This document shows, piece after piece, positions 7,966 to 9,458 of a stretch of 11,649 nt of DNA. Every line of letters begins with the position of its first letter. The stretch's first letter is position 1. The notes beneath the pieces were generated by a model. The model did no database searches. It saw nothing but the letters and a program-made list of their open reading frames with translations, and was not told the origin of the DNA. This DNA is from a virus (taxonomy: Duplodnaviria > Heunggongvirae > Uroviricota > Caudoviricetes): positions 1 through 11,649 of the IMG/VR virus record IMGVR_UViG_2582581022_000020; one strand, 5' to 3'. The position numbers were made by a program, and so were the translations under genes.

Positions 7966-8018
7966 AGGTCGGTCATGAGCCTGTTAATGACATCCCAGCC
8001 CATTGTGATAAATCGTGA
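7806..8018 (+). CDS. Hypothetical 70-aa protein with TTG start
   Basis: AAGGAG (7792-7797) 8 nt before TTG at 7806; balanced composition ([28 protein letters not shown]...). Overlaps the 3' part of the 7627 ORF and the first 44 nt of the initiator gene. Confidence 0.35.
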
Positions 8019-8967
8019 TCTTGCATGCCGTATTGGTCTGAATGAGGCAATTGTGTTGCAGCAGCTTCATTACTGGCTGAATGAAACGAATTCAGGCACT
8101 GAGCATGGCGGAATTCGCTGGGTTTATAACACGACAGAACAGTGGCTGGAGCAGTTTCCGTTCTGGTCAGAGTCCACTCTGAAACGCACATTTGCAAGCC
8201 TGAAATCACTTGGGGTTTTGCGTCGCGAGCAACTCAATAAATCGAAGCGTGACATGACCAACTTCTACACGATCAACTATGAAAGTGAGCTTTTAGAAGA
8301 GGTCAAAGTGAACGAATCCATCAGGTCAAAATGCACTTCTCCATCTGGTCAAAGTGACCTGATGGATGGGCGCAAAATGACACGATCCATTGGTTCAAAA
8401 CGACACGCTGTCATCGGGTCAAAATGGCCCAATGATCTTACAGAGAATACAACAGAGATTACTACAGAGAATAAAACCTCTTCTCGTCCGGACGCTTCGC
8501 AACCGGACACGCAAACGGCTGAACAGGAGTTTTTAACTCGCCATCCTGATGCGGTTGTATTCAGCCCTAAAAAGCGCCAGTGGGGAACGCAGGATGATTT
8601 GACCTGCGCACAGTGGCTCTGGAAAAAAATCATCGCCCTGTACGAGCAGGCCGCCGAATGTGACGGCGAGGTGGTTCGTCCCAAAGAACCGAACTGGACA
8701 GCATGGGCAAACGAAATTCGCCTGATGTGTGTGCAGGATGGTCGTACTCACAAACAAATCTGCGAGATGTACAGCCGCGTCAGCCGCGATCCGTTCTGGT
8801 GCCGTAACGTGCTCAGCCCGTCGAAGTTGCGGGAAAAATGGGATGAGCTTTCCCTGCGCTTATCGCCGTCCGTCAGCACGTACACCGAAAAACGCGAAGA
8901 CCCGTACTTCAAAGCCAGTTACGACAACGTGGACTACAGCCAGATCCCGGCAGGATTCAGGGGGTGA
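7975..8967 (+). CDS. Replication initiator, lambda-O-like (origin-binding, iterons inside the gene)
   Basis: Position after cro and the CII-like gene; four to five 19-20-bp direct repeats within the coding sequence followed by an A-rich ACAGAGA-repeat tract, as for ori-lambda inside gene O. Confidence 0.65.
   Translation: MSLLMTSQPIVINRDLACRIGLNEAIVLQQLHYWLNETNSGTEHGGIRWVYNTTEQWLEQFPFWSESTLKRTFASLKSLGVLRREQLNKSKRDMTNFYTINYESELLEEVKVNESIRSKCTSPSGQSDLMDGRKMTRSIGSKRHAVIGSKWPNDLTENTTEITTENKTSSRPDASQPDTQTAEQEFLTRHPDAVVFSPKKRQWGTQDDLTCAQWLWKKIIALYEQAAECDGEVVRPKEPNWTAWANEIRLMCVQDGRTHKQICEMYSRVSRDPFWCRNVLSPSKLREKWDELSLRLSPSVSTYTEKREDPYFKASYDNVDYSQIPAGFRG
8300..8470 (+). repeat. Putative replication origin: iterons TCCATCNGGTCAAAATG x4-5 plus adjacent AT-rich ACAGAGA repeats
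   Basis: Direct repeats at about 8316-8336, 8339-8358, 8385-8406 and 8410-8429 with a partial copy at 8300-8315; an inverted partial copy GACCTGATGGA at 8354-8364; TACAGAGAAT repeats at 8438-8470. Confidence 0.6.
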
Positions 8968-8969
8968 TC

Positions 8970-9458
8970 ATGAGTCTTTTGAATGAAGTTCAGAAATTCA
9001 TTGAAGCCCATCCGGGGTGTACTTCCGGAGACATTGCGGATGCTTTTGCAGGTTACTCACGGCAGCGCGTTCTGCAGTCAGCAAGCAAGTTACGTCAGAG
9101 TGGGCGTGTGGCTCACCGTTGTGAAGGGGATACACGCAGACATTTCCCGCGCCAGACAAAGATATCGCCGGAGGCGGAACGGCAACCAGTTCGTGAAACC
9201 AGACCTGTGCGCAATTTCTATGTCGGCACTAACGACCCGCGGGAGATTTTATGCCTGACCCGCCAGGCTGAAGAACTGGAGTCCAGGGGCTTATACCGTC
9301 GTGCTGCAACGGTGTGGATGGCGGCATTCCGTGAAAGCCACTCCCAGCCAGAACGAAACAATTTTCTGGCGCGTCGTGAGCAGTGTTTACGGAAAAGCAG
9401 CAAGCGCGCTGTATCGGGTGATGAGTGGTATCTGTCAGGGAATTACGTGGGGGCTTAA
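8970..9458 (+). CDS. PerC-family-like transcriptional regulator with an N-terminal extension (162 aa)
   Basis: Motif AEELESRGLYRRAATVWMAAF...RREQCLRK matches the recalled PerC/Pch signature. ATG at 8970 with a G-rich RBS; the ORF-track start at 8964 is GTG. Confidence 0.5.
   Translation: MSLLNEVQKFIEAHPGCTSGDIADAFAGYSRQRVLQSASKLRQSGRVAHRCEGDTRRHFPRQTKISPEAERQPVRETRPVRNFYVGTNDPREILCLTRQAEELESRGLYRRAATVWMAAFRESHSQPERNNFLARREQCLRKSSKRAVSGDEWYLSGNYVGA

Follow-up and report, generated by a model that had tools for sequence, protein, structure and literature searches.

A lambda-O-type initiator ending in a DnaT-type peptide, in a lambdoid prophage module without a recognisable helicase-loader gene

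We analysed a stretch of 11,649 nucleotides from a member of the Caudoviricetes (IMG/VR record IMGVR_UViG_2582581022_000020, positions 1 to 11,649; hereafter the window), which takes in the immunity region and the early-right genes of a lambdoid Escherichia coli prophage, with a focus on its replication initiator gene (7975-8967, + strand, 330 aa in the list of open reading frames (ORFs); the annotation of phage mEp460_4F5 uses an alternative start, ATG 7987). The encoded protein is a predicted chimera: an origin-binding N-terminal domain is joined, by a linker that the origin encodes, to a C-terminal domain of the lambda-O type, and a DnaT-type tail follows. The module is, as judged by its gene content, of the lambdoid 'O-only' replication class, whose phages carry no gene for a DnaB, DnaC or lambda-P homologue. 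Among initiators sharing the lambda-O-type domain, the type of tail separates loci with a lambda-P-family gene from loci without one, and we lean towards a mechanism in which the DnaT-type tail would bring the host DnaB-DnaC complex to an origin lying inside the initiator gene.

The initiator has 4307 homologues in the search made. RefSeq names it 'hypothetical protein', Pfam returned no family at E<=0.1 except a chance Slx4 match, and NCBIfam returned none. It matched PHROG 391, 'replication initiation O-like', at E 1e-101. Its first 112 residues (7975-8310, + strand), a domain that we refer to as type A and presume to confer iteron-binding specificity, match initiator families and DnaD-like families of PHROG in their N-terminal portions, and also occur fused to other C-termini in many initiator-like proteins. 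The Phage_rep_O N-terminal domain (PF04492) is not present, and the BLASTP alignment to lambda O covers the C-terminal half alone. Following a linker (aa 113-176) that is the translation of the iterons and A-rich tract described below, residues 177-300 (8503-8874, + strand) form a homologue of the lambda O C-terminal domain (33% identity in a BLASTP alignment of 148 aa with E 1e-26; E 2.4e-43 with a profile), the corresponding stretch of lambda O being residues ~177-281. The C-terminal half of lambda O is the half that interacts with P, as established by lambda genetics and biochemistry. Sequence searches of PDB chains with the initiator and with the 164-aa protein encoded next to it gave nothing useful, and a profile of the C-terminal domain found nothing significant among PDB sequences and Pfam.

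The lambda O tail ..LDLTNTDWIYGVDL (..NTDWIYGVDL) is absent from the initiator. In its place stands a tail (aa 311-330; 8905-8964, + strand) that ends in ..YSQIPAGFRG, its last nine residues (SQIPAGFRG, encoded at 8938-8964) being identical at eight of nine positions to the end of E. coli DnaT (SQIPPGFRG), both at the extreme C-terminus. We regard it as a candidate docking peptide for a DnaC-type loading pathway. Nor does this match stand alone. Initiators 71-79% identical to that of the window end in ..VNHISEPDTEIP(P/S)GFRG, with 65-70% identity to DnaT residues 160-179 (70% for the close-relative tail ..VNHISEPDTEIPPGFRG), and close homologues carry tails of 20-43 aa that are 47-70% identical to DnaT 139-179. 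Alignments of other relatives run over DnaT 139-179 or 150-179, and identities of 60-70% hold over 20-30 aa. The tail is near-invariant across 50 distinct initiator sequences, and the residues just before it vary. Outside the tail, BLASTP and phmmer detected no similarity to the N-terminal oligomerisation domain or acidic PriB-binding linker of DnaT, and the three-helix domain of DnaT that binds single-stranded DNA (ssDNA) (PF17948; PDB 4OU6/2RU8) was not recognised in the initiator. Homology of the core domain to this three-helix domain was considered on the strength of a weak colinear BLAST segment and rejected, the profile comparison with DnaT not being significant and the hhalign probability being low. 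The last 35 residues of the initiator model have a predicted local distance difference test score (pLDDT) of 60-74, and the likeness of the window initiator to DnaT is limited to a short, probably flexible peptide. An initiator with the same type of N-terminal domain, P0165, does contain a true C-terminal domain of DnaT, 41% identical to residues 81-177 (E 1e-15). A 40-aa DnaT-tail query against a large protein database matched four fragments. Separately, a tail of the type ..DY(E/D)FDQRPDDE(H/R)L recurs in P0165, P0199 and L132, and is paired in P0165 with the DnaT-type domain.

We then compared 80 species-level loci whose initiators contain the O-type C-terminal domain, found with a trimmed core alignment of that domain, and classed these initiators by the last ~30 residues. 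An earlier scan of viral contigs had recovered near-identical C-terminal domains only; it informs exchanges of N-terminal domains and iterons and is not an independent comparison. Tails of the aromatic-acidic, lambda-O-like type (..HWNSPEAWENTL or ..NTDW..) occur at 36 loci, and the next gene is of the lambda-P family (PF06992) in all 36. By comparison, none of the 20 loci with DnaT-type tails (..IPxGFRG) has a P gene next: three have a DnaC homologue, and the remaining 17 have no DnaB, DnaC or P homologue within 7 kb. A third class of 19 loci (L112, L116-L130, L134, L139, L155), whose initiators bear an extension of ~70 residues ending in WxxIW, likewise lacks any DnaB, DnaC or P homologue within 7 kb (19/19). 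Between the lambda-O-like and the DnaT-type classes, the split of P against no P has a Fisher p of 1e-15, uncorrected for shared ancestry. The extension of the third class ends in ..AWxGIWQQAAEQA.., and similarity of this extension to DnaB, DnaC, DnaT, lambda O or lambda P was not found.

At the three DnaT-tail loci with a DnaC homologue as next gene (L088, L114 and L115), that homologue matches E. coli DnaC at E about 1e-80, and all nine initiators examined that lie directly 5' of close DnaC homologues carry a DnaT-type tail, one of them degenerate. Six of the nine come from phage or prophage records (Rac YdaU-YdaV, POCJ13, vB_EcoS-666R9, ST974-OXA48phi18.2, Kp4882-1 and Aeromonas pAEv1818, the last with the degenerate tail ..KPPGFN); their DnaC homologues are 47-51% identical to E. 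coli DnaC, and the core domains of their initiators differ. The same gene order is found in the host, where dnaT lies immediately 5' of dnaC. Two members of the genus Uetakevirus extend the rule to another core: SPN1S has a DnaT-type domain followed by a DnaT tail and is without a P gene, and phiV10 has a DnaT-type domain followed by a HWNSPEAWEDFL tail (end ..VPHWNSPEAWEDFL) and then a lambda-P-family gene. The rule linking tail and loader is thus, in these sequences, independent of the domain that precedes the tail. In addition, the O protein of mEpX1 (L174:398-1243) and the initiator of Dewey (L176:410-1297) share a tail ending in ..AKDYGQTEMPSWAQE and lie 5' of DnaC/DnaI-like loaders that are only distantly related to DnaC (33-35% identity), which suggests that ..AKDYGQTEMPSWAQE tails with DnaI-like loaders may form a further pairing of tail and loader.

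The second component of the proposed mechanism is an origin within the initiator gene, which, together with the O-only status of the module, appears very probable from the sequence. The iteron pattern TCCATCNGGTCAAAATG has five matches (four on the + strand and one inverted) where 0.13 are expected, and none of 200 shuffles reached five. The array (8317-8426) comprises five 17-nt sites starting at 8317, 8340, 8363 (degenerate), 8386 and 8410, with spacings of 23/23/23/24 bp, and the inverted copy (8350-8366, - strand) overlaps iteron 2 and forms with iteron 1 a perfect 13-nt dyad (arms 8316-8328 and 8355-8367, 100% complementary). Downstream lies an A-rich tract (8439-8477) of three 12-nt units, TACAGAGAATAC / AACAGAGATTAC / TACAGAGAATAA, with ACAGAGAATA-type repeats, which translates to the linker peptide TENTTEITTENK and is a candidate DNA-unwinding element; its A+T content of 67%, against 52% for the window, is moderate rather than extreme. 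These data bear out an earlier note on this DNA, which had described four to five iterons and an AT-rich repeat tract in the middle of the initiator gene, and the likeness that it drew to the lambda origin within O gains strength from the homology of the C-terminal domain to lambda O.

The array is also conserved beyond the window. Diverged genes with the same type of N-terminal domain from other species (L098, L117, L106/110/111), including Trabulsiella, Edwardsiella and Escherichia ruysiae, keep five to six sites on the 23-bp phase, and the peptide TE(N/T)TTEITTE and ACAGAGAAT repeats recur 3' of their iterons. In contrast to the 23-bp-spaced TCCATCNGGTCAAAATG of the window type, genes of the SfII type have an unrelated N-terminal domain and different iterons, 15-bp tandem copies of CTGACCCGTCAAAAT, on a C-terminal domain that is 100% identical. 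Because the C-terminal domain is identical while N-terminal domain and iterons both differ, the latter two are swapped as a unit, the classic lambdoid arrangement, and this lends indirect support to the repeats as putative initiator binding sites. Within the SfII type, the copy number of CTGACCCGTCAAAAT varies from two to five among near-identical prophages (L017, L021, L029 and L071; ~nt 300-400 of the gene), giving initiators of 308, 313, 318 and 323 aa.

The third component is the absence of a phage loader, and here too the earlier note, which had remarked on the lack of a recognisable helicase or helicase-loader gene, was borne out. E. coli DnaB, DnaC, DnaT and lambda P, used as phmmer queries on all six-frame ORFs of the window, mEp460_4F5 and SfII, gave nothing at E<=1, no helicase or loader is annotated in the complete phages mEp460_4F5 and SfII, and a Pfam scan of ten mEp460_4F5 genes from the early region and the right arm, mostly unannotated, found no replication-type domain. 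Nor was a PF06992/lambda-P homologue found downstream of the initiator in the window or in the complete genomes with this module.

We propose that initiator molecules would bind the iterons, that the adjacent A-rich tract would open, probably aided by rightward transcription as in lambda, and that the flexible DnaT-type tail would recruit host DnaB6-DnaC6, most likely via DnaC, because such tails pair with close DnaC genes (9/9) and because of the dnaT-dnaC synteny. The tail would replace the job of the lambda-type tail and P, making a phage loader unneeded, and once DnaB had been loaded the host replisome would take over. We consider this whole chain, from iteron binding through opening of the tract to recruitment of host DnaB-DnaC by the tail, to be somewhat probable. 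Of the two possibilities raised in the earlier note, it thus favours the one in which the initiator itself would recruit the host proteins, and adds to it a candidate determinant, the DnaT-type tail, which in no case accompanies a lambda-P gene; all that follows iteron binding is the part that we infer. A linked proposal, which we hold more tentatively, is that the last ~10-20 residues of E. coli DnaT itself (..VSEPDSQIPPGFRG) may be the peptide with which the restart preprimosome recruits DnaC or DnaB-DnaC, and that the tails of phage initiators may be interchangeable and act as a loader address code. Under such a code ..HWNSPEAWE../..NTDW.. would specify lambda P, ..IPxGFRG would specify host or phage DnaC and ..PSWAQE would specify DnaI-like loaders, and the prophage of the window would have become loader-less by exchanging a lambda O tail for a DnaT-type tail.

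Several points weigh against recruitment of DnaB-DnaC by the tail. The locus counts are phylogenetically non-independent. A likeness of the core C-terminal domain to DnaT could not be demonstrated (hhalign probability 13.6%), and the tail of the window initiator matches only the last nine residues of DnaT, without the VNxxSxPD part kept by close relatives. Initiators with the WxxIW extension (19 loci) are also without a loader gene, so a DnaT-type tail is not the sole route to a loader-less module. From the side of DnaT, no interaction with DnaC is documented (PMC5778457), a 2026 paper on the preprimosome speculates that DnaT's N-terminal domain, not its tail, may recruit DnaB/DnaC (PMC13377028), and DnaT lacking residues 154-179 binds ssDNA with lower affinity and cooperativity (PMC4132743); on that account the tail might act in DNA binding or oligomerisation instead of recruitment.

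The alternative that survives best, which we nevertheless regard as fairly unlikely, is that the tail docks on PriA, PriB or PriC, and that the opened origin enters the PriA-dependent restart pathway of the host, which loads DnaB. PriA, PriB and PriC, not DnaC, are the documented partners of DnaT (PMC5778457; PMC13377028). Moreover, this phage group has no Rec module and is rich in Chi sites (six in the window versus 0.27 expected), and RecBCD improves the growth of the related phage LLS (PMC12315714), which together would fit a reliance on host recombination and restart functions. However, in the available structures it is the helical bundle of DnaT that contacts PriA and its acidic linker that contacts PriB, and a role of the tail is not reported (PMC13377028); moreover, the 9/9 pairing of tail with DnaC and the dnaT-dnaC synteny point to DnaC.

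A second alternative is that the tail recruits no loader at all, being an aid to ssDNA binding or oligomerisation or a stability signal, with the O-type domain contacting DnaB/DnaC or bulk replication depending on recombination. The reduced cooperative binding of ssDNA by tail-truncated DnaT (PMC4132743), the O-type initiators with WxxIW tails that are likewise without a loader gene, the Chi enrichment and the RecBCD dependence of LLS would all be compatible with it. Yet it leaves unexplained the perfect partition of P by tail type, whatever the preceding domain, as well as the association with DnaC homologues, and it sits poorly with the near-invariance of the tail against variable preceding residues, so that we find it distinctly unlikely.

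A third alternative concerns the neighbours of the initiator, either the 112-aa DUF4222/YmfM-like protein encoded directly upstream (7627-7965) or the protein encoded downstream, which the earlier note had put forward as a possible divergent loader. The downstream gene (8970-9458, + strand) encodes 162 aa from ATG 8970, or 164 aa from GTG 8964, and belongs to the yfdN family. As that note had indicated, it has a PerC-like C-terminal motif, which we can now assign to Pfam PerC PF06069 (residues 100-153, E 8.8e-10, 39.2 bits versus a gathering cutoff of 22.6), and NCBI names the protein 'PerC family transcriptional regulator, yfdN'. It does occupy the slot of the lambda P or DnaC gene, and in most closely related phages it comes directly after the initiator gene, although a few close relatives are without it. 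However, PerC is its sole family match; it has no Walker A motif and no similarity to P, DnaC, DciA or DnaD. The model of the 164-aa protein shows a winged helix at the N-terminus (1-62) and three helices at the C-terminus, with a disordered linker between them, and matches MotA/MecI/MarR-type regulators and TPR-like hairpins, with no loader-like fold. Its N-terminal ~60 residues (8964-9160) have weak similarity to lambda Ren (PHROG 142, E 0.006), and its gene stands in the position of lambda ren, a slot filled in other species by DUF977, DUF1627 or Ren-like genes. Relatives of the protein are few and confined to enterobacteria. Among the 20 DnaT-tail loci, a PerC-like gene is present at five and a YmfM-like gene at six, the slot 3' of the initiator being otherwise taken by DUF977, DUF1627, Dam, MT-A70, ParB-HTH or DnaC genes, and neither protein therefore appears to act as an obligate partner. 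We judge the PerC-like protein to be a regulator or moron and not a loader or replication factor, and consider a divergent loader or adaptor among these neighbours highly improbable.

Finally, the repeats might be mere peptide repeats of a decaying prophage gene with no working origin, given that truncated initiators are common in E. coli (yfdO-like remnants of 122 aa; parts of the module matched in 3577 of 5426 complete genomes, the full module in 103), but this seems barely credible for an intact gene in a module 97% identical to sequenced phages, isolate-deposited records included, whose iterons keep their phase and sequence in different species despite encoding a low-complexity linker peptide, and change together with the N-terminal domain.

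The loader-less arrangement as such has already been reported, in 2025, for phage LLS and 34 of 314 lambdoid phages of Enterobacteriales, which encode an O homologue alone; according to that survey no study has dealt with any of them, and how they replicate is not understood (PMC12315714, Genome Res 2025). LLS forms plaques, and its closest relative for repressor and Cro is mEp460_4F5 (PMC12315714). The window shares with these modules the single O homologue without P, helicase or loader, a left operon of the yfdQ/yfdR type and Chi richness. DnaT, tails and iterons are not mentioned in that paper, and the tail analysis is additional here; what is new is the recognition of a lambda O homologue in the C-terminal domain, of a tail of the DnaT type and of the association between tail and loader. 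Our literature search found no paper noting the PGFRG tail motif, its link to DnaC or to the absence of P, or the link between YdaU/YdaV and DnaC, subscription literature (e.g. a 2006 review of replication modules) being outside its scope. The replication types Eru1-3 of Shiga toxin (Stx) phages were considered as a possible equivalent of this module and ruled out, as all contain helicases.

Compared with lambda itself, the window has the same order (cI-cro-cII-O-[next]-nin/RusA-Q) and the same arrangement of iterons followed by an AT-rich tract at the boundary between two domains, inside the initiator gene; it differs in the N-terminal domain (no Phage_rep_O), the 17-nt iterons on a 23-bp phase, the tail and the lack of a P gene. 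With E. coli DnaT (protein i) the window initiator shares the extreme C-terminal peptide, to which close relatives add longer matches, and would share the role of an adaptor that links a complex bound to DNA with DnaB-DnaC. The initiators coupled to DnaC (Rac YdaU-YdaV, POCJ13 gp16-gp17 and vB_EcoS-666R9 O-DnaC) have the same type of tail (..VNTVSLPDSAIPPGFRG and similar) and the same position after cII, but they have other cores (DUF1376 in YdaU) and their own DnaC homologue directly 3', whereas the window module would need DnaC from the host. Initiators with a DnaT domain (Salmonella SPN1S and epsilon15; E. coli phiV10) also borrow parts of DnaT, in their case the whole three-helix ssDNA-binding domain, whereas the window initiator keeps the lambda O domain and adds the DnaT tail alone. 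Fusions of initiator N-terminal domains to DnaT C-terminal domains are annotated in phages, and the domesticated DopC is an O N-terminus fused to the DnaT C-terminal domain (PMC5509034). As for the PerC/Pch/YfdN family, the neighbour of the initiator shares PF06069 with it and differs by the added N-terminal Ren-like winged helix.

If the tail is a docking site, the last residues of an initiator would predict the loader dependence of a phage or prophage, and the rule, if true, would bear on phage host range, on Stx-converting and serotype-converting prophages with modules of this kind and on the engineering of minimal origins. One short peptide makes two open questions testable, namely helicase loading by O-only phages, which represent ~10% of lambdoid phages and whose loading the 2025 survey described as not understood, and the link of DnaT to DnaC, which reviews and the 2026 cryo-EM structures leave unexplained although the two genes are neighbours. 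Should the tail prove irrelevant, the module would be an ordinary, common O-type origin with a loading route still unexplained.

The gene order in the window is as follows. A cI-like repressor (6072-6725, minus strand) is followed by Cro (6821-7018), CII/YmfL (7046-7630), the YmfM-like ORF, the initiator gene, the PerC-family gene (8964/8970-9458), a Dam methylase (to 10111), a LexA-N-terminal-domain protein (10108-10434, + strand), RusA (10431-10820) and a KilA-N protein (10840 onward). The initiator and PerC-like genes overlap at GTGATCATG. The mechanical start of the Dam ORF is GTG 9425, inside the PerC-like gene, and the start annotated in mEp460_4F5 is ATG 9458, which overlaps the PerC-like stop (TAATG); both overlaps suggest that these genes may be translationally coupled. 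Segment 7600-10200 has mEp460_4F5 as its best phage match (97% DNA identity), and 81% of the segment is matched, also at 97% identity, by SfII and a number of sequenced coliphages; SfII, PhiR49_1 and Kati are examples of isolate-deposited phage records with the same module. On two E. coli chromosomes (L084 and L085), a truncated initiator of 122 aa, consisting of the C-terminal domain and tail only, is followed by a full-length 164-aa PerC-like gene, an arrangement that we take to resemble the yfdO-yfdN remnant of K-12 CPS-53.

The six Chi sites (GCTGGTGG) of the 11.6 kb lie at 1011, 7090, 7333, 9481 and 10733 (five on the + strand) and at 9837 (- strand); this richness, a left operon of the yfdQ/yfdR type and the absence of any Rec module from the window match the RecBCD-aided 'LLS group' (PMC12315714). 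A scan of the window with Rfam returned no RNA families. The LexA-type protein in the nin region has 108 aa and consists of the LexA DNA-binding domain only (PF01726, E 2.9e-19), without an S24 peptidase domain; it would be a non-cleavable binder of LexA boxes, and is widely co-inherited with the module.

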